The position numbers and the translations under genes are program-made. A stretch of DNA of 64,000 nucleotides from an uncultured Peptococcaceae bacterium. Lineage in GTDB: Bacteria; Bacillota; Dehalobacteriia; UBA4068. Below are positions 5,968 to 55,785 of the stretch, piece after piece. The stretch covers positions 9,999 through 73,998 of the forward strand of contig CAYJPF010000002.1 of the NCBI GenBank assembly GCA_964372025.1, given 5' to 3'. The notes under the pieces were generated by a model. That model made no database searches, had not been told where the DNA came from, and was given only the letters and a program-made list of their open reading frames with translations. Numbering within the stretch: the first letter of the stretch is position 1; each line of letters begins with the position of its first letter.

Positions 5968-6481
5968 ACCTAAGTACGGTAAGTGAATTACTAAATCAAT
6001 TACTATAAAGGGGGCACTAACATGATATAGAAATCATAGGGGATTAAATAAAGAAAGCGTTATTCCGGAAGCTAAATATTATAAACTCATTAGGTTTATT
6101 AATAACTCAATCAAAGATAATTTATGTGAGGGAAAGGAGTTTGTATTCCCCTATAGATTGGGGAAATTATACGTAGACCAATACACTCCAAAAAATTATA
6201 TCACACATGAGGGCAAATTTAAATCCACATTCCCTATAGATTGGCCTACTACTAGGCAATTATGAGAAGAGGATGAAGAAGCTAGGTTAAATAAACAATT
6301 GGTTAGATATGAGGAAGACGCTCTATGCTGCGTACGTTATTCTAGACTGAGAGTAGGATATAAAAATTCAAATTATATTTCATTTAAGCCCCACCGTGAA
6401 TTACGAAAGTCTGTATTCGCAGCATTTCGAGAAAATAAATTTACACCATTTAAAAAACAAAAATATTATGGGAAGTTATAA
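5951..6481 (+). CDS. hypothetical protein (frame 2; in-frame TGA at 5984, 6023, 6263)
   Basis: Frame 2 is open from ATG 5951 to TAA 6479-6481 if TGA is sense. It fills an otherwise ORF-free 500-bp gap. The start codon is uncertain. Confidence 0.4.
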
Positions 6482-7187: not shown

Positions 7188-7188
7188 T

Positions 7189-24400: not shown

Positions 24401-27400
24401 GCTAAGATGGGTAAAGGAAATGCTTCAACACAATTTAGTGCATCGAGGCATAGTAGTTATGGTAAACTTAGAACTAAGTGGGCACAAGCATTATCAGGCA
24501 AAATACTTAATGGAAATGCTACTATAAGTAAGTATTACATTAATAATGGAGGCAAAATTTCTTACAATAAAGAAGCATTTATTGCAAACTTTGCAACTGT
24601 GGCTAACGGGCGAATTGTATCTAACTTAGACTACGATAATCTATGAAGTGCTATGCGAGCGTTAGGAGTAGAAGAGGCGTATTTCCGAGAGAACCAAGAG
24701 GCACTGCATCGTAAAACTAATGCGATACTTGGACAAATTATGTCATCCTCATACTTTCCACCAATTCTAAGTGGGGACACAGAGACTCTAAATGTTTATT
24801 TTGATTCAGTCATAGATAATAAAATAGATTTTACTGAGAATAGTCATATTAATTTGGAGGACAAGATGATCTATGATGCAACATTACATAGTCATTTAAC
24901 AAAAACTATCTCGCAATTAATGCGGGTAACTACTCCTAATAGTGTAGAAGAGATATATGAAGTGATGCCCTGGCTTAATCCAGAGCACTGTGCTTACGTA
25001 ACTAATTCAAAGTGGTTAAAAGGTCTTCAAGAAGGCACTGTGACCAAGTTACATATGACTATATTGGAAGGTTCTAAAGAGACAGCTTCTGGAGTAGGCG
25101 TGCCATTTGATAAACTAAAGCCTGTTGATAAAGTAATCACTGTGCTTAATAGTATTCAATCTGGAATGTATCAATTAATGCGTCCTGCAGACAATGCTTC
25201 AGAAAGATTTATCAAAGTAGAAGGAGAGTTATTAGTACCTATTACTGCAGATAAGTCGGTGACTATATCTTTATTTAAGAATTATTTAATTGACGAATTA
25301 AATCGTACTCAAGAGGATAATACTGGGTATATTAATTTAGATAAAAATTCTAAAGAAGGATTTATTCTATCGGAATTATTAACCAAAGATCAACTATCAT
25401 ATTACGAAAATGAGTGGAAAAACTCGGGATCTCCACAAAATTTTGGGGAATGGGTAACATCTATGTACTCTGACGTTATTAGCAATAATATCTTGACATA
25501 TCTCAATAAACGAGTTAAAAGATTATTAAACTATCTTTCTGATAATAAAGTAATTTTTATATCAGGAGACCAAGTAGCTATTCGCGGATTACGTACTCCT
25601 AAAGCTACAATGGCTATGGGAGATTTTACTAGATGGTTGTTTAATACTGAGGCAAATTGAATGGCTGGGTTTATAGAGCAATCTAAATTATTCTTTGGTG
25701 ATCCAGCATATTATAAATCTCTTGCAGACGAGTTTAAACGACACTCTGGTGCAGTTGGTCCTAAAAAATATGCTAATACTTCTATTGAAGCTAATGTTGC
25801 TATACAAAAGCATTATAAGCGATTATTAGATGGAGCAGGCAATCTCATGGATAAAATCACGGGAACTAAACCTATTTATCGAACTGCTATATTTAACGAT
25901 GTTATGACTTACTCACAACAAATTGTATATATAGCGGATACTCTAGATAAAGATAATGCAGCCTACCAAAAAGCTAAAGCAAATAAAACTGACGACGCTT
26001 TGATAGAATGGATTATTTCTAATGCTAAGAAAGAAGGTTTAAAAAGTGCTGCGTACTTAGACATGACTGAAGGAGACGGATTCGGATATATATCCCTAGA
26101 TGCATATCGTGATTTAAAAGTTCGAGTAGGAGATTGGTCTGATGACGCTGAGAAACTATATCAATGGGAAGTATATGAATATAATAATACTCCTAAAAAG
26201 GACCGTACATACACAAATTCTTCGGGAGTAACAACATCGTTAAGATACGGAGATTGGGGAAAACAGGTATTTCATTCACTAAAGCCTCAATACTTTGGCC
26301 CTATGGCAGAGGTAGGATTTAGAACTACCATGTATAAAACTTCTTTGATGCCCTTATTGCCAAGTGTTATAAAGGGGAGAAACTTAGAGGCATTACATAA
26401 ACACATGGTGGATAATCAAGTAAGTATACTTACTCACTACTCTGCTAATAAAGGCGTTACTACTAAAACTAAGAATATAGACGGAGTTAATACTACTAAC
26501 TCATTCTATGATGTGCAAGGAAACTTTGGTATTCAAAATGGGTATTACTTGGGGGATCCTGGAGAATTCTTAACGCAGGATACTTATGTAGAAAACTGGG
26601 GTATTCAGGTAGACACAGGTGAGAAATCACACACTGATGTTATTACTGGTACTCAGATGATGGTGCATATTCTTAATGGCTTATTTGATGGAGGATCTAT
26701 TGCAGACGATGTTACTAAATCTCCTGAGGAAAAAGCATATATTCAAGATAGAGTAGATGAATATTTTGCTCTAAATAATGAACGCATTTCTTTAGGAGTA
26801 GAGAGGCTGAAGGATATATTAGGAGTAGATATAACAGGTTCTGAATATTCGTTCTCAAGAGAGGGAGTGGAGAAATTATTGGATATGCTCACTAATGACG
26901 CTATTACTCAAGACATGCCTGATAATTATTTTGAGGCGATTAATATTTTGAAAAAGCAGTCTCCAGAGAATGTTAAGTTAGACTTGCTTCCTAATAAAGA
27001 GGCTTTTGAAAGTACTTTATTGAGCATTGCTTCTAAGAATACTATCAAACAAAAGCGTAAAGGATTTGCAGCGCTTCAAGTAGCTGCTACTATGTGGGAA
27101 TCCGGTAGTCGTAAGAAGATAGGTGGGATGTTAGCAGGATCAGATCTTAAATTTGTAGTATCAACTTCTAAAGAGGGAGTTAGAACTTCTTCTATGGAAG
27201 TATATATACCAGATATTTATAAAGGCAAAATTAAGATAGGTGATGCAATAGACTCAAGATTACTCCAACTGATAGGATTTCGTATTCCTACACAGGGTTT
27301 ATCTTCTATTGATTCTATTATTGTTAAAGACTTCCTTCCTAAAGAAGCCGGTGATATTATAGTTCTTCCGACAGAAATTGTGGCAAAAGCAGGTTCTGAC

Positions 27401-29680
27401 TTCGATGCGGATAAAATGTATTTATATACTCCAAATTGGTTCTTCGATAAAGATGGTAATGTGGCTTATGTAGATTATGCTAATTGAGAAACACAATTTG
27501 AACAATTGTTATCTACAGATAGTAAAATTACTAGGGAAGAGTTTAAACAAATGGCTATTGAGAATAGGCTAGCTGAGATTCAGCAAGATTTAATTACTTT
27601 ACCGGGCAATACTTCAAATCTTATTGCTCCAGTGTCTTCAGATGTACTTGAGGACGCTGCTACAAAAGCAATGATAGCAGTGCATGGCGAAGATAATTAT
27701 GAGTCTTCTGCTGAATATTACAAGTCCAAATCACCGTTCTCAGCTATGACTGATCTTATTTATACTTCGGAAGTATCTGAAAATTATATGGCAGGTAAAG
27801 CTGAAGTAGGTATTACAGCATCTCAAGGTAAAATGGGAGTATACTGCTCTATCTTTGATTTAGGAGTAGTGTTATCGGAGAATGTCCCATCAAGAATAGC
27901 AGGAGTTCCCCAGGAGTCTTTGCCATTTAAAATAAATTTAGATGGAACTACTATTAAATTGGGTAATAAGTGAGATAATAGGGATAAGTATCCTATTGCT
28001 GAGATTATGAATCAGCTGATTACTATGGCGGTAGACGCTGCTAAGAGTCCTTTTGGTACTAACTTAGGAGCAGATCCTTCTACAGTAGGCATTCATACTA
28101 TGATGGCAATGGCAGGCGGAGATATGGAGCAACTAGCGTTATTTATGAATCAACCTATTATTAGGGAGTATCGTAAATTACAACAATTGCACGAGTCTCA
28201 AATGGCTCAAGAAAATTTTAGTTCCCCATTTGATCAACAGGCTGCTAATAAAGAGACTCGTTTGACTAAAGAGGGAATCGTTAAAAAATTAATGATTAAA
28301 TATGGTGCCAGCGAGAGTGGAGGTAAATTATCTGCGCCTATCACATTAAATCTAACTAATGAAAAACTATTAGACGGATTTAGCAAAGACGCTAAAGAGG
28401 CAATTAAGTATCAACCATTTATTCTGGATACATTCCTCAGATTATTAGACTACTCTAAAATTTTAGGAAAAGCTACTCAAGGAGCTACTTGGGATACGAA
28501 AGGAGGTGGCAAAACTTTATCAGAGACGCAAATTAAGCTACTTACTACTCAAGAGATTCTTGATAGTGGCGTGGTGACTAATTATGGTAAATTAGTAAAT
28601 TCTGGATACATTGCTCCATATAAAGAGGCTGCTGCAACTACGTTTAATATTTATAAAAATTTATTTGTAACATCTTCAGATGAATTACTTTCTGACTATA
28701 TTCTTAAATACGTTATGAGAAGACCTGGATCTACAGGAGACACTGTTAAACGTATGAATAAGTTAAAGAATGCAATATTAACTGCATTAGCATTAAACAC
28801 AGCTAATTCTAACGAAGTATATTTACGAGATAGACAAGAAGAATTGATGTTCGGGATCAATAATATCCCTACTTGGATTATGTCATTGAGGAATGATCCT
28901 AAATATTCAGGGAATGCATTGCTGTCACAATTAGTTCCAATACTATCTACAGGAGGAGAGTCTGATTTTAATTCTTTGAAGTTATTTGCAGACAAGGATA
29001 CTTTATCACAAAATGCTATTACGGAAGCATGGAGAGAACTACAAGTTATTTTTGGTAATAATAAAATGGATGATTTAATGGCGTTTGCCTTACTTCAATC
29101 GGGATTATCTCCTTCCCCACTAAATTTCTCAAAAATAATTCCTGCGGATAGATATTATAATATGCTTATGCCACTTATTCAGGGTGGTATAAATTCTGGT
29201 GTACATGCGGATATCCTTTATAATAATTTCGAGGTGGCAGTAGAATTAGCTTATTATAATGACCCTTTGTTTACGTCTAATCGTAAGTCTCCTATTACTA
29301 GCCTAAAGAAAGTATTTAATAAGGAGACGGGCCTCAATAATATTGTATATATGCCTCCTAAGGCGGATAATAAGCAGCCTGCTAATATATTTATTGATGC
29401 GGTGACTCATATAGATTATGCAAGAAATAAATCTTATGCATACTTTAATTATGCTCCTGGTAGTAAATTAATTGCTGCTCTAAATAAGTATAAGGAAGCC
29501 TTTGTTGAGGAAGTAAAAAGTACTCCTACGCAGGATGGCTCTACAAACAGTTCTTCTGTAGACCAAACTTCTTCTGAATTAACAGCAATTATTCAGGCGG
29601 ATCAAGTTACTTCTGAGGAGAAGGTGGAAAATAACGCACTAAATCCAGATAGCTCTATAGCTGAACAAAAATGTAAATAA
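18437..29680 (+). CDS. giant virion protein, 3747 aa; candidate virion-packaged RNA polymerase (two-barrel type)
   Basis: Six track ORFs (18437, 22151, 24653, 25661, 27506, 28007) are all in frame 2 and separated only by TGA, at 22115, 24644, 25658, 27485 and 27971. The stop is TAA at 29678-29680. It contains SDFDADKM (27398-27418), which resembles the universal beta-prime NADFDGDQM catalytic motif. There is an HEAFH zincin-like motif, and a Pro/Glu/Thr-rich linker near 20.7-20.8 kb. Confidence 0.65.
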
Positions 29681-36122: not shown

Positions 36123-36712
36123 TTTATTATACCTTGTTTAATCATAATTTCTGTCACAGAATGAGCTAGCTCTCCTATAGACCCATTATTATTAATCACA
36201 TAATCCCAGTCTGAATAATCGTCTAATTCAATCTCGGAATCATGTGTATCAGTGGAAGTAGAGTTTCTATTGAGTCGAATCAAGATGCCGCCCCTTTGTT
36301 TAATTGCATCAGCTTCATTCTTATACCTAACATCTGTAATTATCCAATTTTGATGCTTATAATCATGAAATAATTTATTGATCCAATAACTTTCTCCAAA
36401 TGTTTTCCTTCCAAAAGTTCCTACTTTTTGCAACACTTCTCGAATTGTTATTTTTTCCTCAGCATACTTCACTTTCATAGCTTTTGTTGCCTCAAATTCA
36501 AATAATTCTATGGGAATCCCTGTGTATAGAGACGCAATTTCCTTAACTCCTTGGGCAAATGATTTGGGAGTAAAGGAGCCATTCGGAGAACTCGATCCTC
36601 GACCTTCTAATAAGGCTTCTAAACCATAATTTCGTTCCGCATCAATGGTGTTCCATATAGTTGCAACTGTGTTTTTACCAGACTGCTTTTTACCTGATAT
36701 TCCTACTAACAT
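36113..36712 (-). CDS. deoxynucleoside monophosphate kinase-like P-loop kinase
   Basis: Walker A GISGKKQSGKNT. Architecture resembles T4 gp1 dNMP kinase (…FGESYWINKLF…ITDVRYKNE…). Confidence 0.55.
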   Translation of the reverse strand: MLVGISGKKQSGKNTVATIWNTIDAERNYGLEALLEGRGSSSPNGSFTPKSFAQGVKEIASLYTGIPIELFEFEATKAMKVKYAEEKITIREVLQKVGTFGRKTFGESYWINKLFHDYKHQNWIITDVRYKNEADAIKQRGGILIRLNRNSTSTDTHDSEIELDDYSDWDYVINNNGSIGELAHSVTEIMIKQGIIKCM

Positions 36713-36724
36713 AATAAATTTATT

Positions 36725-38755
36725 TTAATGTACCCAATGGTCACTAATATTAGCCGACGCATCAAGGGGCACATGTCTGCAAAAAACCTTTCCTGAATTT
36801 CTCATACACTCGATTATTTTGTCTGCTACAACTTGCGCTAAGTGTTCGGGACATTCAACGTTTATTTCATCGTGCACCGGTACAGTATACTTAACAATAA
36901 ATTGTAGAGAATTATCTAATATTCATTTATAGAATGCAATTGAAGCCCTTTTAAAACATACTGCACCTCTCCCTTGTATCCTATAATTAATAGATTGCTT
37001 TTCTAATTCGGAGCGACGTTTAAAATACTGTTTGGCTACTTGTATTTCGTAAGTATATTCCTCGGCTGCTTTAGCTGCCTTATACTTATCCCAAAATCCA
37101 GGGGTATTCATTGTTCGTTTATAATTTTGTAATTCCTCAAAATCATACACAAAGGTTTTATGTCCATATTCTGGGCTATGCTCAATATAACCAAGTTCCA
37201 TTACTTCTTTTCTGCACTGTTTTTGGTAATTAGCCACCCCTTTAAATTTATTTAAATAACTATTGTAAGTCTCTTTAGCTTTGATAGGGTCATAGCCATA
37301 GGTTGTGACCAAAGTCATATCATTGCCGCCATAATTAAATAAAAATTCTGGACCCTTAGCCGCATTACGAAGATGTGGATAAAGTTTTTTAATATCCTTG
37401 ACCTCCACTGATTCTAATTCATCTGGATAAATAGCTTTTGCTACTAGGGAGTGCATATCCCCTGATCCATGTAAAAATTCCTCAATCATTTCGGAGTCAT
37501 TTGCCACATTTGCTATCAAAACAGACTCTTGTCCACAATAATCTACTGATACCCAAGAATTCCCTCCTTCGGAAATGAAGCAGCTCCTAGTTGCGGCATC
37601 GCTTGGGATATTCTGAAGATTGGGAATGGAATATCCCGTATCTTTATCTTTGCCTCCACCACTAGATAGTCTGCTTGTATCCATTAGCTGTGTAAAATTA
37701 GTGTGAATACGTCTAGACACAGGATTGATCGCATCTATAAAGTTTTGGCCATAAGTATTACAAACTTTTTCCCACTTTTTGTAAGTAAGGTACAAAGGAG
37801 CTACTGGAGATAACTCTTTTTGTGGCTTAATAACCTTAGCATCAACAGACTTTTTAAGTTGCTTAGTCTTTTTATCTAGAACGGATAAATTAAAACCAAG
37901 ATATTCAAATAAAGGTATAACTTGTTTAGAGCTTCCCCAATTAATTAAACATTCTGCTTCTTTAATATGAGTATCAAATAAAGACTGTTGAACGCACTTA
38001 TTTACAAACTTACTCTCACTTGAAAGCTCCGAAATAACCCAATTATTCAAGGCTTTCTCTGCATTAGTAAATTCTAAATAGTCCTCGAACATCTTAGCCT
38101 TTCACTTATTTACATCGAGTTTTACTCCACAATATTCAATATATGCCAACACTGCTACAAACTTATTCTCTAAACACACCGCATTAAAAAGCCGTTTCTT
38201 CATTACTTCTTTATGCTGTGCATGCATAATAGGAACCAAGTATTTAACATCTTCACAAGCATACACTAAGCCTTGAGTAGTTATTCCGCCAGTTTTAAAT
38301 TGTTCTCGAATACTCTTATTCAATTTAATTTTTAGATATTGCATACATATAGCATCTAAACTCAGCTTTTTAAGTCCTGGAGGGTATCCCAAATACAGCA
38401 GTTTTTCAACTAAATAGGTATCCCATACATACTTAACTGTAATTTTATGATGTAATAACCATTTCAAATCAAATTTAGCATTTTGCAATACCCATGTATA
38501 TCTGTCGTCTTCTAAGAATGGTTTAAGAAGATTAATATCTATGGTAGAGTCTAATACATATTGATTATATTCATCCCCAAATTGAATTAATAATAATCTT
38601 TTTGTGTATGGATCCAATCCACTTGTCTCAGTGTCTAAGCCAATATACTCATGATTAGCAAAATAAGTAAACATGTCTTGTAATGTACATCTAGTGGAAA
38701 TAGTATTATCTTCTTCAATAAGTAATTGCGGACAATTGGATATATAGTATCTCAT
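36725..38755 (-). CDS. polA: family A DNA polymerase (3'-5' exo + polymerase domains), ~676 aa, read through two in-frame TGA codons
   Basis: Exo I IGLDTETSGL, Exo II QNAKFDLKWL and Exo III YACEDVKYL, then TGA (38102-38104). Next come motif A VSVDYCGQESVL, motif B LRNAAKGPEFLFNYGG and IQGRGAV, then TGA (36923-36925). Motif C VPVHDEINVE follows, and the C-terminus …NLVDHWVH ends at TAA 36725-36727. The second TGA aligns with the Trp of E. coli Pol I …AVDAWLQ. Confidence 0.85.
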
Positions 38756-39490: not shown

Positions 39491-42400
39491 TTATTGCAAC
39501 AATAATGTTGCACATAAAGAAGTTCCACAAGATTTACAAATCTTACAGCCTCCTTCCGAATGTAGTTTTTCACCACATTCTGGACAAGTAGCATGAGTTT
39601 CTTTCTCATACTTAGATAGTATTCTACAAATAGCGGAGGTAAAAGAAGTTACTAATGGATTAATTTTCTCATTAGTTTTAATAATTTCTTTTACGGGTGC
39701 GCCATGGCGTAATAGCATAGAAGTTAGTATAGAACTCATTCGCTCCTCATTCAATTCATTTGCCAATTGCAAATTAGGGATGACTAAGCCTGATTCTCCA
39801 ATAAATTTATAATGTCCTTTCTTTAACTTAATTACTTTCCCCGGACCCTCTGCAATAGGGTCTTCTCCTAATTTAAACGCAAATGTTTCGTATGGACGCC
39901 CTGCGTACAATCCCACAACTAATGCATAAGGGACTTTTTTAATAGACACTAAATGCAAATTGGCTTGTAATTCTTTAGGACGTTTTGGCGGCAATGACTC
40001 TTTAAAATCAGCGGGCTTATCTTCTTTAGTGACTAAGATTCCTGACCGCGACCCTTCTCTGTACACAGTAACCCCCTTTAGATTATGCTCCCAAGCCTTC
40101 ATATAAATAGTACTAATCTCCTCTACAGTAGTGCTTTCCGGTAAATTTATAGTACTGGAGATACTATGTGTTGTTCCCGATTGAACCGCTGATTGGGAGA
40201 TAATTCTATCAATAGGACGTATCTCTGGAGCAGTATTACCATAATAAACACTTTCTTTTACTATTTCATCTAATTCTTTAGTGGCCATCGAAGATAATTG
40301 AGCATACGCCTCTGCAATTGATAATTGTCGCTTAACTGCGTACTCTTTAATAACTCCCGGATGGATGACATTAAATTCTACAAAGGGTTCTCCATTAGGA
40401 TCTATATATGTAGGAATATCATCTGAACTAGCACGCTTTCGTCTAGTGTAATATAAGGAAAATACGGGTTCTATACCCGAAGAACATTGGGCGAGCAAAC
40501 TAATTGTTCCTGTTGGAGCTACTGTAGAAAAACTAATATTACGACGGGCTGAATCTACTGACCCCGGGCTTGTCCCAGTTATTAGACTGATGTGTCCTCG
40601 ATTTTCGTAATCAGGGTTGAACGCGGGAAATACTCCTCGCTCTTTACCTAATTTTTTAGATTCTTCGTACTCTGCCTTAAACTTATTTGTAGAAATTTCG
40701 TCCATTAGCATAACAGCTACTTCTGAACCATATTTTATACCTAATTGAGCAAACATATCTGCCCATCCTGTAGTACCTATACCACATCTACGCCCTTGTT
40801 GCGCAGTTTTCCGTACCTTTATCCATAGTTCGTGCTCTTTAGTCTTCTCCTCCACATTGGCGATAATAGTATCAATCGCTTCTATCTCAAGATCTATAAA
40901 ATTATCAGCTAATCGCATAGCTTTTGCACACAGAGCCATAAACTTCGTCATATTAAAAGATGCTTCCGAAGTATATGGAGCACTTACGCAATTACTTAGA
41001 TTAATATGTAATAATCTACATGCATCGTAAGGAGATAAGGGAATTTCTCCGCAATTATGCGCCACCATATTATTTACAATTAAACAATTGGTTCCCGGTA
41101 CTTGAATATCATATACATCGGTTTGTTCACCTTCCTCGATAGCAACTATTGCATTTTCAAATCTATTTTTAAATTTAGTAGCTAGATGCTCTGGAAGAGA
41201 ACTTGTATTTTTCCATGCAGGGGGATTGCCATTCGGAATAAATTTACCCTGCTCATCTCTACATTGATGTGTTTGAGGATTTTGAGTAGTAGCCGTAACA
41301 TAAGAATGTTCAGAGTGAGAAATACTTGAAAGGTTATTTATATTATTATTAAAAGTATCTCCATCTAAATGGTGTATATCCATATTAATAATATTTCCAT
41401 GAACTGCTTCGTACACTAACCTATGCTCCATCACATACTCTCTGTTCCCCTCAGTAGTTAATTTCACTCCTGCATAACGTCTTCCTCTACGACTGCGTAA
41501 AATATGAGCAATCCTATCACCTAATACTAAATTTCTAGCTTCGATAAATCCTTTGTTATGCACATACATTTTATGATCAGGAGTAACAGTAATACTCTCT
41601 CCTGTTCGTAATGTGATTTTTAAAGTTTTAGCATTCTTTTTAGTTAAAAATGCAGCGGAGGATTTTACTACGCATAATTTATTATTAGCATCCATGCTAT
41701 ACACATACGTAGGTTTTGTAATGTCAGCTATTCTTATCCTGCCCTCCACTGTCTCTACCAATGAGTCCGGGTGAAAGCAGGGATTAGTCGAGATCGGCCT
41801 AAATTCGGGATAGTTCCCATCCAAAGAATTTTCTAAAATAGTGTTCCAAAATAAAATCCCGGGCTCTGCGGAAGCATGTGCTGCTTGCATCATCTTATTC
41901 CAGATTTCTTGGGGATTTACTTTTTTAATATAAAAATGAGTAGAGGTGTTCGGTTGAATTAGCTCTACCCCCTCTTTATAATACTCATCGTACAATTTTT
42001 TTAGTTGTTCTTGGTCATACGTAGACGTAGTAGGAAATTTGAGATAATACTCAGTATTACCGTATTTAACAGCTTCCATAAATTCGTCAGACACCTTTAC
42101 TGAAATATTTGCACCAGTTATCTTAGATAAATCTTGTTTACTTAGGATAAACTCTAATATATCAGGATGATTGCCGTCCATAGTAATCATCAATGCTCCT
42201 CTACGTCCGTCTTGCGCAACTTCTTTTGTGCATGCAGAATCTACTTCCATGAATGAAGTAGCTCCAGAAGAAGTTTTTGCCACATTATTAACTTTTGAGC
42301 CCCTTGGGCGAAGGTGAGAAATATCTTTTCCAACGCCACCGCGTCGCTTCATAAGCTGTATTTGCTCTTCTCTACTACGCATGATTGCCTCGTAAGAATC

Positions 42401-42694
42401 CTTATTATCGCCAATTACAAAGCAGTTGCTCAACGATCCTATATGCTCAGTATTTCCTATTCCGGCTAATCCAGATCCTCCCGGAATAATATATTTAAAA
42501 TCTTTTAAAAGATTATAGATATCTTCCTCTGATAACTCGGGAGATGGATAAGATTGCTCAATTCTAGCGAATTCTTTTGCAATCCTTTTGTGCATATCAT
42601 CTGGAGTAATATCCGTAGATAATGCGTATTTTTCTGACCACACCTTAGCAGCCATTTCGTCGCCATGAAAATAAGACAATAATTTAGAATTCAT
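39491..42694 (-). CDS. nrdJ: class II (B12-dependent) ribonucleotide reductase NrdJ, interrupted by an intein
   Basis: MNSKLLSYFHGDEMAAKVW start. The extein motif STNPC|GEIPLSPYDACRLLHINL is split by the intein. There is a C-terminal Cys-rich Zn-ribbon. No TGA occurs in ~1067 codons. The track start at 42793 adds a spurious 33 aa. Confidence 0.85.
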   Translation of the reverse strand: MNSKLLSYFHGDEMAAKVWSEKYALSTDITPDDMHKRIAKEFARIEQSYPSPELSEEDIYNLLKDFKYIIPGGSGLAGIGNTEHIGSLSNCFVIGDNKDSYEAIMRSREEQIQLMKRRGGVGKDISHLRPRGSKVNNVAKTSSGATSFMEVDSACTKEVAQDGRRGALMITMDGNHPDILEFILSKQDLSKITGANISVKVSDEFMEAVKYGNTEYYLKFPTTSTYDQEQLKKLYDEYYKEGVELIQPNTSTHFYIKKVNPQEIWNKMMQAAHASAEPGILFWNTILENSLDGNYPEFRPISTNPCFHPDSLVETVEGRIRIADITKPTYVYSMDANNKLCVVKSSAAFLTKKNAKTLKITLRTGESITVTPDHKMYVHNKGFIEARNLVLGDRIAHILRSRRGRRYAGVKLTTEGNREYVMEHRLVYEAVHGNIINMDIHHLDGDTFNNNINNLSSISHSEHSYVTATTQNPQTHQCRDEQGKFIPNGNPPAWKNTSSLPEHLATKFKNRFENAIVAIEEGEQTDVYDIQVPGTNCLIVNNMVAHNCGEIPLSPYDACRLLHINLSNCVSAPYTSEASFNMTKFMALCAKAMRLADNFIDLEIEAIDTIIANVEEKTKEHELWIKVRKTAQQGRRCGIGTTGWADMFAQLGIKYGSEVAVMLMDEISTNKFKAEYEESKKLGKERGVFPAFNPDYENRGHISLITGTSPGSVDSARRNISFSTVAPTGTISLLAQCSSGIEPVFSLYYTRRKRASSDDIPTYIDPNGEPFVEFNVIHPGVIKEYAVKRQLSIAEAYAQLSSMATKELDEIVKESVYYGNTAPEIRPIDRIISQSAVQSGTTHSISSTINLPESTTVEEISTIYMKAWEHNLKGVTVYREGSRSGILVTKEDKPADFKESLPPKRPKELQANLHLVSIKKVPYALVVGLYAGRPYETFAFKLGEDPIAEGPGKVIKLKKGHYKFIGESGLVIPNLQLANELNEERMSSILTSMLLRHGAPVKEIIKTNEKINPLVTSFTSAICRILSKYEKETHATCPECGEKLHSEGGCKICKSCGTSLCATLLLQ
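41054..41779 (-). mobile_element. intein (242 aa) with an HNH endonuclease domain, inserted at the RNR catalytic NPC|GEI site
   Basis: Begins with Cys (CFHPDSLVETVEG…) and ends …NNMVAHN, followed by the +1 Cys. The internal HNH motif is HHLDGDTFNNNINNL…SHSEH. Confidence 0.8.
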
Positions 42695-43739
42695 GTAGTA
42701 ACTTTTTAATGTCGATCTCTCGCTCCCCTTTACAAGTAAACGTAGTTCGAGAGTAGGTAAATATGTCATTATCAAAATGCCATTTAGCATCATCTAATAA
42801 CATCTTTCAGTCTTTAAATCCGTGCTCTAAAAGCATTTGTTCGTTAGGATCAGTTATATTAAGCCCGTCTATTTGTAATGGATATTTCCATATAATAGGA
42901 GTTCTTGTAAATTTATTAATTACAATAAATTTAAATGGCAAAATAGTAAAATCTTTGTAATACTCATCACTAGAAAGTATATGTGCTAATATATATGTAT
43001 ACATATTCGCCTGAATATAATAATTCCAATGTAACACAGAGTCTTCAAATTTTTCCTCGGCCTTTCCAGTAGTCTTTAGATCAATAGGCTGAACAGTTTT
43101 GTTGTAATGATCCACAATAATTCTATCGAACATACATCTAATTAATGTCCCGTTATAATCTAGACTAAATTTTAACTGATTTAATCCTTCGGAATCATCG
43201 TCCAACTCGGTGAAATATTTTTTAGTAAACTCCGAATTAAATAATGTTTCAACGCAGGCTTTTGCTACGTCAAACTCTTCTTTAGAAATTAGCGTCTTAT
43301 CTTTAGTTTGTTGAAGTAGGTGGAAATAATGACTATGCTCAGCTAATTTTGATAACTTAGTAGCGTCTCTTCATGTAGGGCCATAATTAAATTCTACGCA
43401 TGCTTCCAGCTTAATTTCGTCTGGTAAAAATGTAAAAGATTTTACATCTGAGTACAAGGTAAATAAGTATTGTATGATTTTAGAAATTGCTGGAGGAGGC
43501 ATTACAAAAGATTGTATAAAAAATCTTTCGTCCAATAGCTCTGGCTCTGTCACTAGGCAATCTACTAAGGACCCAAATCTAAGTGCGTCCGACTCTTCTA
43601 TTTTAGAAGAAATAAGGCATTTTGGAGTGCCCTCCCTTAGAAAAGAGGACAACGTAGAATAAGAAAATCCTCCTAACTGCCTATATTCTGATTCCGTAAT
43701 AGGTAGACTAATCTTCTGTAGTGACTTCTTCATAACCAT
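42684..43739 (-). CDS. PD-(D/E)XK family nuclease (RecB/YqaJ-like exonuclease), ~351 aa, TGA at 43371 and 42807
   Basis: Track ORFs 43371-43739 and 42807-43205 are in one frame and joined across TGA. The motifs are …GSLVDC… and PIDLKTTGK, the D…(D/E)xK pattern. Ends at TAA 42684-42686, overlapping the RNR start. Confidence 0.55.
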
Positions 43740-44409
43740 TCAATTGTAAATAATCCAAAAGGGTTGTTTTTGCTATAGTTAGGAGTCTAAATTCTTCTAA
43801 CATATTATTCTTAATACCTTCTTCTACATCAGCTTGTATCGCTTGCTCCAATTTAAGTAGAGCAGCAGTATATATCTCTAAAATTTTTTCTAATTCCCTG
43901 TTATCCCACCATTCTAAAAACTTTTTATAGTCTTTTTCTGAAAATAATGAGCGAATAGAATCTAATATTTGGATTTTATACTTCATATTATTTAAAATAA
44001 TAACAGATTGTTGCACCTGTTTAACAGTATGGGGCTCGAAAAATAAATACTTAATCCCCATAGATTCTAGATGATGTAAAAATAACTTCCTTTTTACGGG
44101 ATATACATCATTAGCTTTTCCCTTAACTTCAAAAATAATTAATCATTCCCCTAAGTAAAAAGTAAAATCAGGAGTATAGGTCATACTTCTAATATTTACT
44201 ATAGGGGAAATTATTTTAGTTTTATTGTTGGGAATAAATGCATACCCTCTACCTAAAAAAAATTTAGGTAAGAGGGTAGCCTTATACTGTTCATAAAGAG
44301 GGGTGAATCCCGCTTCTAATAATAATCTATAGCACGTAGCTTCTAGCTTACTTTTGAAAATTATATTATTATACTGGGTGCTCGTGGCATTTTTTACTTT
44401 TTTATTCAT
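43708..44409 (-). CDS. DUF1064/VRR-NUC-like PD-(D/E)XK endonuclease (putative resolvase-type), TGA at 44143
   Basis: Track ORFs 44143-44409 and 43708-44061 share a frame and are joined by TGA. Motifs: FKSKLEATCYRLLLEAGF…YTPDFTFY…IFEVKG. TAG stop. Confidence 0.5.
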
Positions 44410-45874
44410 TAATTAATAAATTGTGTAGAAAAGTGATTTTACTATCCTCTTCTTGATCGATTCTTCCCCAAGTATCATTGTATTCGCATTCAGAATACCT
44501 ACGCATAAATTTACGCAAAATACAGTAAGAAATCATTTTTTCGGCTAAATCTTTTGAATACACTTTATTAAAAATGTATTCTAATATTCCGCCAGAAGAT
44601 GCTTTTGAGACAAGTGTGGCGATAGAATCTGTAGTAGTGCTAGCATATTTTAAAATAGCGTTACACAAGAACATCCAATACACGATCTTCTGATAATTAG
44701 TAGATGGTCCGTGAATTCTAAATTCTACTGTCTTGCCCGCGGGCTTAAACATTAGGTTTAATAGGTTTGCCCACATATACCGATACTCCATATTCCATTT
44801 CTGGCGGTCATTAGGATCGCCTGGATGAGCTTTTGTTAAGTCATCCTCGAAATTTAATGCTCCTCCTGAATAGTTTTTATACAGTTGTTCAAAGGAGGAG
44901 AATTTAGGCAATGGATTTGTGTAATTTTTTCTCTTAGCCTTATATTCAGCAGTTCTTGTAGCGAGTCGCGGCAAAATATCGAAAACACTAGATTGTATAT
45001 TATATAAAATATTATATAATTTAAAAATCTTAGTTTTGTCAATAGGAAATCCTCCCAAATGAACGTGAACAGAGCATTCTTTGTTGAATCGAGTTTTTTC
45101 GGATAATACTCGAAGTTGTTCATGGAGAAGTTTAAAGCCTTCTTCTCCAGCCATGGGTACAGTTGCATACTCAATTCCTTCTATAGACCCATCTCGTAAA
45201 GGAATCAGTCCTAATTCAAAACATTGTTGTTCTGGGATCACTCCCGCACAAGTCTCAAATTCAAGGCCAAAAGTAAATTCCCCAAATTCTGCTACTTCAG
45301 AACTATTAAGGGCTAGGTCTGGATAAACTTTGGGAAAATCCATAAACGCCTTTAGATGAGGGCCGCTAGAATACATTTGCTCTATTGAATAATTGTATTT
45401 TCCCGGCTTGATGAAGGACTCTTGAAGAGCCATAAAATGGGCATCCTCTTTAGGAATATTAGCACATTGTCTCCAAATGCGCTCATCTGGAAATTCTACC
45501 AAGTCTGGAATCATTTCTAAGACTTTTGCATTTGGAACGAATGTATTAATTTCGTATGTTCCTAGATAATAATTTAGATGCACTCTGATGGGGGAGTGGT
45601 CCTGTACCGCAAATCTTCCGTAGACATAAGAGCCTTCCTTCATTCCTATAATTCCGAAAACCAATTGTTTACTACCACGGAGTTTATAACTAGAATCAAC
45701 GTCGTCGAAAAAAATTCGTCTATCCCCCTTAACATACCAGTCTTTTTCTACAAGTACTGCGTCTACTTCTTTTAGGAAATAGGCTCCATTAATGAGTACA
45801 CAATCAATGGCTGGAGCAATGACTCCTGTATTTGTAATAATTGTTTTAATTTTTTGCATCATGTTCACTCTCAT
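44402..45874 (-). CDS. glutamine-synthetase-fold carboxylate-amine ligase (Amidoligase_2-like), 490 aa
   Basis: Motifs FGLEFE…(E-rich)…SVHVHLGG, typical of the amidoligase/GCS2 family. No TGA. Confidence 0.5.
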   Translation of the reverse strand: MRVNMMQKIKTIITNTGVIAPAIDCVLINGAYFLKEVDAVLVEKDWYVKGDRRIFFDDVDSSYKLRGSKQLVFGIIGMKEGSYVYGRFAVQDHSPIRVHLNYYLGTYEINTFVPNAKVLEMIPDLVEFPDERIWRQCANIPKEDAHFMALQESFIKPGKYNYSIEQMYSSGPHLKAFMDFPKVYPDLALNSSEVAEFGEFTFGLEFETCAGVIPEQQCFELGLIPLRDGSIEGIEYATVPMAGEEGFKLLHEQLRVLSEKTRFNKECSVHVHLGGFPIDKTKIFKLYNILYNIQSSVFDILPRLATRTAEYKAKRKNYTNPLPKFSSFEQLYKNYSGGALNFEDDLTKAHPGDPNDRQKWNMEYRYMWANLLNLMFKPAGKTVEFRIHGPSTNYQKIVYWMFLCNAILKYASTTTDSIATLVSKASSGGILEYIFNKVYSKDLAEKMISYCILRKFMRRYSECEYNDTWGRIDQEEDSKITFLHNLLINE

Positions 45875-47321
45875 TTGATATTAACCATTCAATAATACCC
45901 TTAGCAGTCAATTCTAATTCTTCCTTTGTTACCGCTACCGACTCTGACGCAACTGCCTGCTGGGTTTTTTCACATCTTGAGCATACAGAATCTTCTGTGT
46001 AAGTAGTAGGTTTTCCGTCTCTAATTTTGTAATATCTATTTTTAGTGTAAAAATAAACGTGTAGTACACCAGATCCTGGCTCTCCCTCCCCATTTTCCCA
46101 CAATTTAGTAAGTTCATTATAATATAAATCTTCACTTAGGCAGCGGATAGCTTTCCATAATGGGAATGTGGGATATGAAGATTCAATTACTTGCTCTATT
46201 GCACAAAGTAAGTTATAAGAATATTCATCAGTCAGTCGATGCCCCTTAAAGAAGAAGAAGGGCTTTGCCTCACTAGTTTTAGTTTGCGGAGAGTATCCAT
46301 AAGGAGTAATGAAATGTCTTCCAGACAGCCATTCTCCCATCATTTTATACTTACCGCCCTCCATCACAACTTTTCGAGAGGTAGCTCCATGAGATTGATC
46401 CGAGAGGGGAGTTAATACTGTAATGGCTCCATAAGTAACAGTTGATTTGTAGGAAGACTGTTTAGAATAGTTAGAAGTAGGATAATCATCATAATCAGAA
46501 TATCCATAATTGCCACCATAATTTGATCTATAGGGCGTTACTGCAGCACTTTTATGTTGATGGTTTTCAGAACGATCGTATACCACTGTCTTAGGATTTT
46601 CCCAAGTTTTACAATAGGAAAATAAAGTATTATGCTCTATATCAATTAGATCTTTAGAACTAAGTTGAATGAGTCCTAAGGACTCCTTAATAGAAGAAAA
46701 CCAAAATCCATTAGGAGTATTCACCATATAAAGAGGGCGTTCTTCCGTAGTCACTGTGGATGATTGATAAGATTTAGATTTTCCCTTAAATATAGAAATT
46801 ATTGGGGAAACTTGTCTATAATCTACAAAAACAAATGCTCCGGCTCCTTGATACTCTGTGAGCACATCAAAGCCTTGATAATATACAACATGTGCAAAAA
46901 TCTGAGAGTCTGTAAAGTCTGCAGGAACATTACGTAGGTACTTTTCACTCAATTCCGTGTAATTTACCAACGTACCGTTATGAATCATTACAAACTCTAC
47001 TTTGCCCTCTGCGTTAGTGATTACCACTGGCTGAGCTTGGTCCACAGTTAATTTCCCTACAGAAGCTTTTCTACAATGCCCTAATGCGACTTGCACTGTA
47101 GAGTCGTTAATATTTCTTACAAAAGAAGACGTCTCTGTGGTAACAAAATCTGCAAAAAGTTTAGTTGCCCCAATACCGTATTCATAATTTCCGTCGATGA
47201 ATGCTCCCGCACTGTCTCCACCACGTTTGTCATTGATAGATCCTAGTACTGCGTACTTTACTTTAGAAAAATCACTTTTTCTTGAAGGCGAGGTTTGGAT
47301 GTATCCAAAAATTCCACACAT
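45846..47321 (-). CDS. class II glutamine amidotransferase (Ntn hydrolase, N-terminal Cys) fused to an unknown C-terminal domain
   Basis: Starts MCGIFGY with the catalytic Cys2, which is the classic GATase type 2 pattern. The remaining ~240 aa are unassigned and carry a CSRCEK Cys pair. Confidence 0.7.
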   Translation of the reverse strand: MCGIFGYIQTSPSRKSDFSKVKYAVLGSINDKRGGDSAGAFIDGNYEYGIGATKLFADFVTTETSSFVRNINDSTVQVALGHCRKASVGKLTVDQAQPVVITNAEGKVEFVMIHNGTLVNYTELSEKYLRNVPADFTDSQIFAHVVYYQGFDVLTEYQGAGAFVFVDYRQVSPIISIFKGKSKSYQSSTVTTEERPLYMVNTPNGFWFSSIKESLGLIQLSSKDLIDIEHNTLFSYCKTWENPKTVVYDRSENHQHKSAAVTPYRSNYGGNYGYSDYDDYPTSNYSKQSSYKSTVTYGAITVLTPLSDQSHGATSRKVVMEGGKYKMMGEWLSGRHFITPYGYSPQTKTSEAKPFFFFKGHRLTDEYSYNLLCAIEQVIESSYPTFPLWKAIRCLSEDLYYNELTKLWENGEGEPGSGVLHVYFYTKNRYYKIRDGKPTTYTEDSVCSRCEKTQQAVASESVAVTKEELELTAKGIIEWLISNESEHDAKN

Positions 47322-47322
47322 A

Positions 47323-48120
47323 TTAAAGAATATTATATTTGTTAATTAATTTTTTAGCCAAGTCTGTATTATTAGTATTAATACATTCCATAATTGCATC
47401 CATATCTGCTTGAGGAGTCTTACCCTCATTTATGAAAGCTATTGCCTTCATTGTTTGTCGGTATACCCAACGTAGTGTTTCCTCACTGGTGATGAAATAT
47501 CCAGACAAAGTGCGATATTCGCATCCATAGGCAGTCATTCTAAAACAACCCGCTTTTCCATATAGTTTCCTACGTTCATTATCGTTGTCCATCAATATTG
47601 ATGGGACTCCTAGAAATAGGTCTAGAGTTTTAATAATGAGCAACGAAGTGGTTAGGTTATGATCGTCGTACCCCACGTGAATATGGCATCCTGTTGTTCG
47701 GAGATTAGTTGCTGCTCCTTCTGGAGTAGGATTTTCTGCCTCTAGCCAAGCGTTGAAATCTGGTTCGCAGCCAAACATCTTAGCTTCATCGGATTGAAGC
47801 TGATCTTCGTCAATAAAAGCACTTCCTTGACATAGTATATCTAATTTAGAGTCTTTAGATTTCACAAAATCTCTGATCCATTCTTTCATCGTCAACATGT
47901 TATTAACGAAATCGTCCTCGTTGTCTACAGGGGGAATATTGTACTCTGCAAGAATATTATCAATTTGCAATCCAAATCCACTGGGCATATTTTCAGGATG
48001 ATATGCATCCCCTTTTTGTCCCGGGATTAGTCCTATAGAAGAAACTACCTTATCAGTAGTTGTATTAACGATAAAAAGTTCTGGATCAGAACCAATTGTG
48101 ATGTTTTTTAATTTGCTCAT
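47323..48120 (-). CDS. second glutamine-synthetase-fold carboxylate-amine ligase (Amidoligase_2/GCS2-like), 265 aa
   Basis: IGSDPELFI near the N-terminus and GCHIHVGY in the middle, the GxExE / HxH pattern of this family. Confidence 0.5.
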   Translation of the reverse strand: MSKLKNITIGSDPELFIVNTTTDKVVSSIGLIPGQKGDAYHPENMPSGFGLQIDNILAEYNIPPVDNEDDFVNNMLTMKEWIRDFVKSKDSKLDILCQGSAFIDEDQLQSDEAKMFGCEPDFNAWLEAENPTPEGAATNLRTTGCHIHVGYDDHNLTTSLLIIKTLDLFLGVPSILMDNDNERRKLYGKAGCFRMTAYGCEYRTLSGYFITSEETLRWVYRQTMKAIAFINEGKTPQADMDAIMECINTNNTDLAKKLINKYNIL

Positions 48121-48129
48121 TTTGTGAGT

Positions 48130-48753
48130 TTATTTTAAATATGATAAAATAAGTTGATTAGTGTATTCTATATTGGCCTCATCTGAAGACCATTCTGGAT
48201 GTCCCTGAATACAAAGGGAATTTGTTTTTGGAAAGAAAGCATTTTCTACCTCTACGAACGCATTTGGAACCTCAATAGGACCATTTCCCATACAATATCT
48301 ATCAGAACGTGCTTCTTCGCTCCACGCCAATAGTTCCCAATTTTCTTTGGGCATATTCCATGGATACATCATCTGGTGATGTACAGAAGTAACATTGTAG
48401 ATCTCTCCCGTATTTGTTTGAATAGTGTGTCCCCCTCCTCCAGCATGTCTTCGAACATCTTGGATAAGCTTTCCGCCAGATAGTGCACAAAGAAGTTGAG
48501 CTCCCCTACAAATACCTAATTTTAGAGTACCTGCAGGAATCTTATTATATTCAGCTAACTCAAATGCATCTCTACGCCTATCAAAATACGTAGAAGGATG
48601 CTCTGTGTCCCCATATATTTCAGGATTAATGTCTGCCCCTCCTGTAAAAATAGCGATATCCGCTTCGTTTACATTATCAGTTAATGTAAATGGGAAATTA
48701 ATAAAACAAGTAATATTGTTCCAATCATTTCCTACAATATAAATTTTTTTCAT
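48130..48753 (-). CDS. class I glutamine amidotransferase-like / peptidase C26 (gamma-glutamyl hydrolase-like)
   Basis: GICRGAQLL (nucleophile elbow with Cys) and IQGHPEW (His-Glu). Resembles PuuD/gamma-glutamyl-GABA hydrolase-type enzymes. Confidence 0.6.
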   Translation of the reverse strand: MKKIYIVGNDWNNITCFINFPFTLTDNVNEADIAIFTGGADINPEIYGDTEHPSTYFDRRRDAFELAEYNKIPAGTLKLGICRGAQLLCALSGGKLIQDVRRHAGGGGHTIQTNTGEIYNVTSVHHQMMYPWNMPKENWELLAWSEEARSDRYCMGNGPIEVPNAFVEVENAFFPKTNSLCIQGHPEWSSDEANIEYTNQLILSYLK

Positions 48754-53483: not shown

Positions 53484-54254
53484 TTAGGTTTTTTATCCTA
53501 ATCTCTACGCATTTCTGCGTAGTCCAGCATACATCATCGCTTCACAGCGTTGGGCACTCGTGGGGTAATTATTAGTGACTTCTTCATACCCTATGCGTTG
53601 AACCTTCTCCATACTAATTAGTCTTCAGGAGCTTGGCTGCTTTTAAGTGATTTTCCCTATAATAAGGTTTTTACCATCTAATAGGCGTTATCCTATCTGC
53701 TTCTAAATACTTTTCAGTAAGTAAGCGGTACTTATTATTTTACAGGACGTTCCAGCAATTCACCCAATTTTAATTCGACCATTATTTAAATTGCCACCTA
53801 AATCCATAGGCTGTGTTGTACTTAGGTAGATTGTTACAACACTTTTGAATAGGACTATATGCACTTTTGTTAATAGATCTCGCAGCTTCTCTAATCGCAG
53901 GGAATTCTGCTAATACTTTCCCAGTATAACGATCTATTTTTAATACTGTTTTACCACGACTATAGTGACTATTATATTTAGTACTGCACCACTCTAAATT
54001 ATCCACATTATTATTAATTTTATTTTCATCTTTATGATTTACTTCTGGATAATTTTGTGGATTGGGTAAGAAGGTAAGCGCTACAGCTCTATGCATAGAT
54101 AGGTGATATTGTTTGTAATTATTATTCAGGGTTACAAACTTATATCCACGGGAATCAGTTGCTTGTTTTAAAGGTACTCCCTTCAAACCAAGTATGACTC
54201 CTGTTCTAGATACTTTGTATCTTGGATCTATAGGCAATTCTTTAAATTCCATAA
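53484..54254 (-). mobile_element. group I intron (same family as the 432-1251 intron) carrying an HNH homing endonuclease
   Basis: On the - strand: P GAATTGCTGGAA (53750-53761), Q AAGCAGCCAAGC (53631-53644), R GGTTCAACGCATAG (53591-53607) and a GNRA hairpin CTACGCAG-AAA-TGCGTAG near 53500. The ORF lies 5' of P. Boundaries are approximate. Confidence 0.6.
53782..54252 (-). CDS. HNH homing endonuclease (NUMOD4 + HNH_3-like) inside the intron
   Basis: MEFKELPIDPRYKVSRTGVILG (NUMOD4-like) and HKDENKINNNVDNLEWCSTKYN (HNH). TAA stop. Confidence 0.8.
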   Translation of the reverse strand: MEFKELPIDPRYKVSRTGVILGLKGVPLKQATDSRGYKFVTLNNNYKQYHLSMHRAVALTFLPNPQNYPEVNHKDENKINNNVDNLEWCSTKYNSHYSRGKTVLKIDRYTGKVLAEFPAIREAARSINKSAYSPIQKCCNNLPKYNTAYGFRWQFK

Positions 54255-54601
54255 TCGAATGACATTTTCTTGCGATCTCCCAACTCTTTAAAAGTTAGGT
54301 AACTATTAATTGTATCAATAGCACAAGATTTGATGTTCTCATCTTTAGACCAAGCTTCTAGAGTTTTAATAATAGTTGCAATATTATCAGTCTCTCTATA
54401 ATTGCGATTCTCTGCATTCCATTGTTTAGTTAATGCCGCAGGGAAAGGCAATTTCTTTTGATCAATATTGATTATTCCATGATGTTTGGGATTGATTCCC
54501 AAATAGTTTTCTACAAAGTCAATTGATCCATCAGGATTAATAACTGTAGAAGTAGATTTTCCGTCCCCGGAGAACCCAACGATTCCGACAACCACGCCCA
54601 T
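54255..54601 (-). CDS. exon 1 of the split P-loop ATPase (Walker A/B part)
   Basis: MGVVVGIVGFSGDGKST (Walker A) and …SCAIDTINSYLTF (Walker B-like). Its frame terminates at TAA 54242-54244, just past the HNH start, so the 3' boundary is approximate. Confidence 0.5.
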
Positions 54602-55785
54602 ATTCGTATAAATTTAAATTTCATAGTAGTCTTTTGTTTAGGATCTACTAATAAAGTAGCCACAATAACTTTATTATTTTGCCTTATAGCATTAATTTTA
54701 TTGTAAACTACTTCTAACTTCGCCTCCTCAGTAGGAGGAGGTAATTCTTTAAAGAAATTAACGGCTCCGTCAAAGTATAGAGGACAAATAAATTTGCCTC
54801 CTCCTTCTCGGCCTCCAATTAACTCTAGAAAGCGTATATTATCACCAAATTTGGCAATATTATACTTTAGAAAGGTAGGAATATTGTATCTATGGGGAGC
54901 ATATAAGCCCATAAATATATCCACGTCTCTCCATGTTGTTTTGCACTCACCTAGTCCGTCAGCAGAGGGCTTCAGCTTATCAAGTTTGAAATTCTCCGTG
55001 CCTTCTTGGGAAGCAGCCTGTTGTTGTACAACTACAAATGTAAATTTATATCTATTTCGTAATTGCACTAAATATTTCGAAGATAACAATTCTATAGTAG
55101 ACCGTAGATCTAGTCCCTTTTCTTGGGTAAGTAAGGATATGTGGTCTATGATTACTATGTTATACAACTCAGGGTCATTAGGTTCATAATAATCAAAAAC
55201 TGATCTAGAGTACTCCTCATGGGTCTCATTATCTTTAAATATTTTAGATGTAAAATGCGTAGTTCCAACAGATGAAGCATATTTCTGTAAAAACTCCTTA
55301 ATACCTGTTGGGTGCCGCACATCGTCGATGAAAGTCACGTGCTCCTCAAAATACGTAATATATTTTTGATATTCCGGAGTTTGTAGTAACTCTATTGCTT
55401 CCTGAGGAAGTAACTTTTCCAAGTTAATAGAGCGCAGTTGTTGACTATCCAATCTAATCTTTTGGCCGGATAATTTAAATAATAAATAGCAGAGAAATTG
55501 TATATATTTTTGTTCTACACTCATCTCAAATGTAAAATAAAACCATCGCACATGAAGACCTTTATCAATAGCTTCAAATATAGGCTCATATACTGCCATA
55601 AAGTCTGTAATTTGGGTCTTACCTACTTTAGAATTAGCTGTAACTAATATATATTTACCCTTCTCAAATCCTGGAAATACTGCTCTAAATCTAGGAAACG
55701 GTGAGGGAATACAATTAGTTAAACCTTTTACGATTCTCTCTCTATAACTTATTAAATTATGGAATACGCGTTCAAATATAGCCAT
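54511..55785 (-). CDS. DnaB/gp4-like replicative helicase
   Basis: ILVTANSKVGKTQITDFMA (H1), FTFEMSVEQ (H1a), IVIIDHISLL (H2). TAG stop at 54511-54513. The 3' end overlaps the next gene by 91 nt. Confidence 0.75.
   Translation of the reverse strand: MAIFERVFHNLISYRERIVKGLTNCIPSPFPRFRAVFPGFEKGKYILVTANSKVGKTQITDFMAVYEPIFEAIDKGLHVRWFYFTFEMSVEQKYIQFLCYLLFKLSGQKIRLDSQQLRSINLEKLLPQEAIELLQTPEYQKYITYFEEHVTFIDDVRHPTGIKEFLQKYASSVGTTHFTSKIFKDNETHEEYSRSVFDYYEPNDPELYNIVIIDHISLLTQEKGLDLRSTIELLSSKYLVQLRNRYKFTFVVVQQQAASQEGTENFKLDKLKPSADGLGECKTTWRDVDIFMGLYAPHRYNIPTFLKYNIAKFGDNIRFLELIGGREGGGKFICPLYFDGAVNFFKELPPPTEEAKLEVVYNKINAIRQNNKVIVATLLVDPKQKTTMKFKFIRIWAWLSESLGSPGTENLLLQLLILMDQLTL

Follow-up and report, generated by a model that had tools for sequence, protein, structure and literature searches.

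Inteins carry homing nucleases of the LAGLIDADG or the HNH type (Dassa et al. 2009, PMC2677866), and those of the HNH type were, according to PMC5050341, first recognised by Dalgaard et al. 1997. As a group, inteins are biased toward the active sites of enzymes of DNA metabolism, ribonucleotide reductases (RNRs) included (reviews, PMC7765530), and within RNRs the position of the radical cysteine is their most frequent site (Dassa et al. 2009, PMC2677866). The passages of Yutin et al. 2021 (PMC7886860) on such elements describe crAss-like phages as carrying inteins and group I introns and as recoding TGA or TAG. Here we analyse a stretch of 64,000 nucleotides (contig CAYJPF010000002.1, positions 9,999 to 73,998, of assembly GCA_964372025.1; hereafter the window), which belongs to a crAss-like phage as judged by its Pfam Crass_capsid, crAss_AuxCP and CrAss_Ring_3_4 matches. 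Its nrdJ gene, predicted to encode a class II RNR, is interrupted in frame by 242 codons. It is very probable (we would put it at about 0.93) that this insertion is a contiguous class 1 intein with a nested HNH homing endonuclease, sitting directly N-terminal to the thiyl-radical cysteine of the NrdJ of a phage that reads TGA as a sense codon. The parts of the gene are as follows, with ^ marking an insertion point here and below.

39491..42694, minus strand: predicted class II (B12-dependent, NrdJ-type) ribonucleotide reductase gene including the intein; 1067-amino acid (aa) precursor, TAA stop at 39491..39493
41780..42694, minus strand: N-extein, 305 aa, ending ...EFRPISTNP and holding LSNCFV (equivalent of Thermotoga maritima C134)
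41054..41779, minus strand: predicted intein, 242 aa, CFHPDS... to ...NMVAHN; precursor residues 306-547 counted from the start codon at 42694 (M34 of the long reading frame)
41495..41779, minus strand: N-terminal Hint half, intein residues 1-95, with block A Cys1 and block B T66-P-D-H69
41162..41494, minus strand: predicted HNH homing-endonuclease module lying between blocks B and F (intein residues 96-206; from Pfam, PHROG and alignments)
41306..41431, minus strand: HNH_3 core motif MEHRLVYEAVHGNIINMDIHHLDGDTFNNNINNLSSISHSEH, with H136-H137, N149 and H155/H158; Pfam HNH_3 at residues 119-159
41054..41161, minus strand: C-terminal Hint half, intein residues 207-242, with block F DVYDIQV...CLIVNN and block G MVAHN
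41051..41053, minus strand: +1 Cys codon TGC, putative splicing nucleophile and RNR thiyl-radical cysteine (equivalent of T. maritima C322)
39494..41053, minus strand: C-extein, 520 aa, beginning CGEIPLSPYDAC
39512..39586, minus strand: C-terminal Cys-rich tail CPECGEKLHSEGGCKICKSCGTSLC, aligning with the tails of crAss001, cr108_1 and DAC23; a weak Pfam TSCPD match lies nearby

The insertion begins with Cys1 directly after STNP and ends in VAHN, after which the host protein resumes with CGEIPLSPYDAC; IHHLDGDTFNNNINNLSSISHSEH lies inside it. These limits, 41054..41779 on the minus strand, are exactly those of the earlier note, which had placed a 242-aa insertion between STNP and the Cys of NPCGEI. 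Taken alone, the 242 residues pass Pfam Intein_splicing at 52.9 bits (cut-off 35.8; E 4.8e-14). They also pass NCBIfam intein_Nterm, which covers intein residues 1-73, at 42.9 bits against a cut-off of 24.5, and these domain matches are far beyond chance. All the residues expected of class 1 splicing are present, namely Cys1, T66-P-D-H69 of block B, D221 of block F, H241-N242 of block G and Cys+1, and T66-P-D-H69, D221 and H241-N242 are invariant when the window intein is aligned with its relatives. When the insertion is excised, the flanks align without a gap across STNP-CGEIP to the intein-free crAss001 Gp69 (STNPCGEIPMGPFDSC) and to several IMG/VR phage NrdJs (GTNPCGEVPLSPFDSC). Excision thus restores a clean NrdJ, as had been predicted, and the joined 825-aa extein scores 470.8 bits on the NCBIfam equivalog TIGR02504 NrdJ_Z (cut-off 399.95).

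An AlphaFold2 model of the intein, built from a four-sequence alignment, agrees with these assignments. Its predicted local distance difference test (pLDDT) has block means of 70-93 at residues 1-90 and 211-242 and falls to about 51 at 91-100. In a Foldseek comparison with the PDB, the top 50 matches are all inteins or Hint domains, with template-modelling (TM) scores up to 0.87 (target-relative; NpuDnaB); they include the Ssp and Npu DnaB mini-inteins, the NrdJ-1 split intein 8ubs and the Mtu RecA intein. The insertion is, by its sequence and modelled fold, an intein and not a native RNR insertion. The earlier identification stands on the splicing residues, the curated Pfam and NCBIfam cut-offs that were passed and a modelled Hint core like those of solved inteins. 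The alternative that the earlier note had itself named, a normal RNR insertion lacking block A and G residues, is contradicted by C1 and H241-N242, which are present, and by the intein-free homologues (crAss001, cr126_1 and the loci L010-L014), in which STNP/GTNP-CGE(I/V)P is unbroken.

The host gene lies in a minus-strand open reading frame (ORF), 39491..42793, of 1100 open codons without any frame disruption. The upstream ATG at 42793, where the ORF starts under translation table 11, was rejected as the initiation codon, since alignment to crAss001 Gp69 begins only at M34; the start of Gp69 aligns with the ATG at 42694, the start proposed before, and the 99 nt upstream of M34 are the tail of the preceding PD-(D/E)XK exonuclease gene, read through TGA codons. 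The ORF product matches the Ribonuc_red_lgC barrel (E 6e-83) over residues 89-878 with a long interruption inside, and the best PDB sequence match of the spliced protein is T. maritima NrdJ (1xjk; phmmer E 3e-56). The nearest RNRs are those of the Steigviridae (crAss001-like), at 46-49% identity. A Cys-rich C-terminal tail like the one listed above has been described for most class II RNRs (PMC5704485). By homology the gene is assigned to class II NrdJ, and as a member of this family its product should depend on adenosylcobalamin.

The phmmer alignment to 1xjk places STNPCGEI of the spliced protein on S318-I325, so that N-P-C-G-E falls on N320-C322-E324, the +1 Cys on C322, the Cys of PYDAC on C333 and that of LSNCFV on C134. 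In T. maritima NrdJ, we take C322 to be the thiyl-radical cysteine and C333 and C134 the redox-active pair (after Larsson et al. 2004). By this alignment the +1 nucleophile of the intein is the predicted thiyl-radical cysteine of NrdJ. The insertion splits the catalytic finger loop N-P-C-G-E, and the radical cysteine doubles as the +1 nucleophile; on both counts the unspliced precursor should be unable to act as a reductase. The earlier note had called the element a textbook intein at a catalytically essential site. The alignment of the +1 Cys with C322 agrees with the second half of that description, and as this is the commonest site for RNR inteins, the finding is textbook in both senses.

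Between the two Hint halves lies the nuclease module. It scores 38.8 bits on Pfam HNH_3 (cut-off 24.8; E 7e-10) and is matched by 13 PHROG families of HNH endonucleases (best E 1.7e-12). The catalytic order H-N-H/N is found in IHH(137)LDGD...NNINN(149)L...H(155)SEH(158), and EHRLVYEAVHG...DIHHLDGDTFNNNINNL...HSEH aligns with two free-standing HNH ORFs of the window and with the HNH motifs of the inteins of P0001, L007 and others (described below). These matches and the motif alignment bear out the claim that the nuclease is HNH and not LAGLIDADG, and the module is classed as a predicted HNH (His-Me finger) nuclease. When the HNH insert by itself was searched against the PDB by sequence, nothing meaningful came back. 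We considered whether the module had been copied recently from one of the window's other HNH genes, free-standing or within introns, and rejected this, as its similarity to them is weak and at the level of the family (E about 2e-3 to 5e-3).

If the intein behaves as its family does, translation would yield a 1067-aa inactive precursor, in which an N-S acyl shift at Cys1, helped by T66 and H69 of block B, would be followed by trans-thioesterification onto the +1 Cys. Cyclisation of Asn242, helped by His241, would then release the intein, and an S-N shift would leave a native STNP-CGEI peptide bond, giving an 825-aa functional NrdJ and a free 242-aa intein. In a co-infection, the HNH module of the free intein could nick or cut intein-less nrdJ alleles near ...TCGACTAATCCC^TGCGGAGAAATT..., and recombinational repair would copy the intein into the cut allele (homing). 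The homing target would be expected to be about ...ACTAATCCC^TGCGGAGAA..., the reconstituted site being TTTAGGCCGATCTCGACTAATCCC^TGCGGAGAAATTCCCTTATCTCCT.

The same site is occupied by inteins in many other RNRs. An exhaustive HMMER scan of 1.84 billion cluster representatives gave 2664 matches at E <= 1e-3, 31 of them at E <= 1e-30, and in the best 149 of the 2664 matches, where the site was examined, at least 54 sequence clusters have an intein exactly at NP^C(G/A/S)E of an RNR. The boundaries of the window insertion coincide to the residue with those of these 54. Their median length is 237 aa; all 54 have the +1 Cys, 53 the penultimate His, 52 the TxxH motif and 51 the HH..N..NL motif. The closest among the matches listed, P0009 and P0010, are full-length at 59% identity. 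Like the window intein, these two and some 50 further clusters are HNH inteins of 230-250 aa lying at NP^C...HN^C(G/A/S)E, with the HH..N..NL motif; they differ in being at most 59% identical to it and in exteins that range from crAss-like NrdJ to monomeric RTPR-like NrdJ, with one eukaryote-type host (L005). All are metagenomic NrdJs, none of them annotated. The sequences place the window intein in a large allelic family of apparent HNH inteins at one site, spread across crAss-like NrdJ, RTPR-like NrdJ and others. The impression that such inteins are rare, left by a word-indexed protein search that found 3 and then 8 relatives, was overturned by the exhaustive search.

Other occupants are found at or beside the site in related phages. 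It is empty in crAss001 and most Steigviridae. Two mini-inteins (P0002 and P0003) have lost about 95 aa comprising the HNH module, with the flanking KLTTE and ISIEEGE kept, and are 61-64% identical to the window intein over the Hint halves. A crAss001-like RNR gene from Logan (ERR11534794_273593, 323..7223; L004) has three inteins. The first is at LSN^CFVIG (the redox cysteine), the second, a mini-intein related to that of the window, at STNP^CG, and the third, which has a LAGLIDADG domain, at HSISS^T. The gene is further interrupted after GRR and after NCG by two LAGLIDADG ORFs with an intron-like look; no Rfam intron match was found at this locus at E <= 0.01. In Bacteroides phage DAC23 (MT074142.1, 1483..5001; L001), the gene DAC23_177, annotated "hypothetical protein", is an NrdJ with an intein at STNP^C. 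This intein, shared by DAC23, DAC16 and SJC03, has the site and the related Bacteroides-phage NrdJ host in common with that of the window, but it is 321 aa long, carries LAGLIDADG_3 and ends in Ser-Gln instead of His-Asn, and its homology is limited to the Hint core. The inteins of more distant phage NrdJs in IMG/VR (L007/L008, L016 and L017; L007 is on a 405-kb contig) are 311-313 aa long, lie at GTNP^C, have the HNH-like motif IHHYDFNNKNDRPENL and end in Lys-Asn, thus lacking a penultimate His; Intein_splicing is the one domain that Pfam calls in them.

Phage cr108_1 (MT774385.1, 1495..5103; L002) has its RNR annotated as two coding sequences separated by a 308-aa LAGLIDADG_2 ORF. At 2390..2607 there is a match to a group I intron (sub-threshold in Rfam at 33.8 bits, E 1.6e-5) whose start follows directly on the NPCG codons, two codons beyond the intein site; it exemplifies the coincidence of intron and intein sites. 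The empty, mini-intein, LAGLIDADG-intein and intron-adjacent alleles are signs of a homing cycle at this site.

The best full-length match of the first word-indexed search, P0001 (43-46% identity; Logan SRR22347836, locus L005 4660..7656, and SRR22347834, locus L006), occupies the same site in an NrdJ gene of 59% G+C that is broken by short GT..AG introns; in L005, RRLGLGVMGFADMLYKMG is restored once 6726..6773, a 48-nt piece holding a CTAAT branch-like motif, is cut out. These sequence features suggest that the host gene is eukaryotic or from a giant virus and that the intein lineage has spread across domains. That the lineage is currently mobile, crossing very large host distances between crAss-like NrdJ, RTPR-like NrdJ and the GC-rich NrdJ with GT-AG introns (L005), seems doubtful to us. 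A literature search with the run accessions of the related loci gave no match, nor did a megablast of the gene against 50,697 GenBank phages or an exact protein look-up among about 15 billion sequences; IMG/VR and the Joint Genome Institute (JGI) metagenomes held relatives no closer than 36-42% (full-length matches) or up to 48% (short fragments).

Some points weigh against the picture of an intein with a nested homing endonuclease. In the AlphaFold2 model the HNH module has pLDDT below 50 at residues 96-105 and 109-206, because the alignment has only four sequences, and a beta-beta-alpha-metal fold is therefore predicted on sequence evidence only. The mini-inteins P0002 and P0003 show that an intein can do without the nuclease and that loss of it does occur. 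A near-identical allele of the phage, intein-less or intein-plus, was found neither in the GenBank phages, IMG/VR and the JGI metagenomes nor in the collection of about 15 billion proteins. It is thus possible, if rather unlikely, that the nuclease of this splicing intein is dead or decaying and the intein a passenger that has reached fixation late in the homing cycle and has ceased to be mobile. The loss of the whole module from the two mini-inteins with their Hint halves kept would fit this, as would the missing intein-less target allele of the phage lineage and a base composition fully ameliorated to that of the genome (G+C 0.35 for the intein against 0.348), which shows no sign of recent acquisition. 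On the other hand, neither the HH...N...NL...H motif nor the EHR(L/F)VYE element upstream of it is disrupted, and the catalytic motif is kept between the window intein and relatives of only 43-59% identity; its retention in 51 of the 54 allelic inteins suggests family-wide selection for nuclease function.

Some inteins with the Cys1/Cys+1 arrangement are redox-trapped by disulfides. The arrangement is present here, with cysteines as both junction nucleophiles and the +1 Cys as the radical site, and the intein might accordingly be imagined as a conditional switch, sensitive to redox state for example, by which activation of the RNR is delayed and which has a regulatory and not only a selfish role. 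We think this very unlikely: the sequence gives no specific indication of regulation, the intein-free orthologues of most related crAss-like phages work without one, and an intein scattered among relatives, with other selfish elements taking its place at the site in some of them, fits parasitism. That the 242 residues are instead a structural insertion peculiar to this RNR lineage, or the gene a disrupted pseudogene that never splices, is hardly credible, given the curated intein and HNH models that were passed, the recovered Hint fold, the residue-exact agreement with 54 other inteins, the intact splicing residues in an open frame, and the break that an unspliced insert between P321 and C322 (T. 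maritima numbering) would make in the catalytic loop of a well-conserved enzyme.

An intein with its own nuclease, as preferred here, lies in a genome with other HNH genes and with a modified code. The phage reads TGA as tryptophan (like code 4). In-frame TGAs are present in the genes for PolA (36700..38755, minus strand; TGAs at 38104..38102 and 36925..36923) and the PD-(D/E)XK exonuclease (42687..43772, minus strand; 43373..43371 and 42809..42807). The codons fall on Trp residues when aligned to homologues (cr108_1), or reading through them recovers a conserved sequence further on, as with VHDEI of PolA motif C. Under code 4, many ORFs of the structural arm on the plus strand (for example 7180..12843 and 18428..29677) fuse to give proteins of 1700-3750 aa. 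The nrdJ gene with its intein has no in-frame TGA, all seven of its Trp codons being TGG, and no tRNA genes were found in the window by ARAGORN.

The earlier note had counted two HNH group I introns. One is confirmed: a NUMOD4+HNH_3 ORF at 416..1099 breaks the major capsid gene (72..1476, plus strand; Crass_capsid positions 337-449 in ORF 72..431), and the group I intron core that follows at 1030..1241 on the plus strand scores 53.9 bits on Rfam RF00028, above the gathering score. The other is weaker: an HNH_3 (and weak NUMOD1) ORF at 53785..54294 on the minus strand adjoins a group I intron match at 53505..53829 on that strand that stays below threshold (22.5 bits, E 0.006), both lying downstream of a DnaB-like helicase ORF (54514..55785). 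The segment 53505..54294 (minus strand) is probably the second intron that was meant, with an intron score that is only sub-threshold.

As a separate observation, a run of genes at 44405..48753 on the minus strand, beside the replication genes, matches Amidoligase_2, class II glutamine amidotransferase (GATase_6/7), phiEco32-like COOH-NH2 ligase and Peptidase_C26/GATase, and it looks like a peptide- or amide-ligase modification cassette.

The main value of the locus is for annotation and as an illustration; knowledge of inteins or of RNRs is unchanged by it. In annotation, nrdJ should appear as a single precursor whose intein spans 41054..41779 and not as an oversized or hypothetical protein, and the genome needs to be translated with TGA as Trp. 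The set of alleles (empty, HNH intein, HNH-deleted mini-intein, LAGLIDADG intein and adjacent group I intron) illustrates the homing cycle and intron-intein coincidence in one gene of gut Bacteroides phages. Were the intein lineage still moving between such distant hosts, which seems doubtful to us, NP^CGE of the crAss-like phage RNRs would be a contested "landing pad", taken over in turn by HNH inteins, LAGLIDADG inteins and group I introns. Should the intein have kept its activity, homing in gut phages could be studied with an intein that is compact (242 aa), bears a nuclease and has a defined NP/CGE extein context.

Among described systems, the phages covered by the passages of Yutin et al. 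2021 (PMC7886860) on these elements belong to the same virus order as that of the window and share with it inteins, HNH and LAGLIDADG introns and stop-codon recoding; no RNR intein is described in those passages. HNH inteins in general resemble that of the window in their Hint domain, with the HNH module nested between blocks B and F, but reside in other host proteins; the closest matches among HNH inteins of GenBank phages, in the terminase of Lactobacillus phage CL2 and the DNA polymerase of RcKickapoo, are about 31% identical each over the N-terminal Hint half and the start of the HNH module. The NrdJ-1 split intein from the Global Ocean Sampling (GOS) metagenome (PDB 8ubs) also has an NrdJ host and the Hint fold, and is the second-best PDB sequence match of the intein (E 5e-4) as well as a top Foldseek match. 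It differs in being inserted one residue further C-terminal, in being divided over two genes with a free-standing endonuclease between them, and in having no HNH domain. In site, the counterpart is the "RIR1" class of InBase (as in Dassa et al. 2009, PMC2677866), whose members likewise lie directly N-terminal to the radical cysteine of class I and II RNRs and use that cysteine as +1; the window intein is set apart by its host, a crAss-like phage NrdJ, and by its HNH nuclease. It is thus a new and unannotated member of a large and already recognised kind of selfish element.

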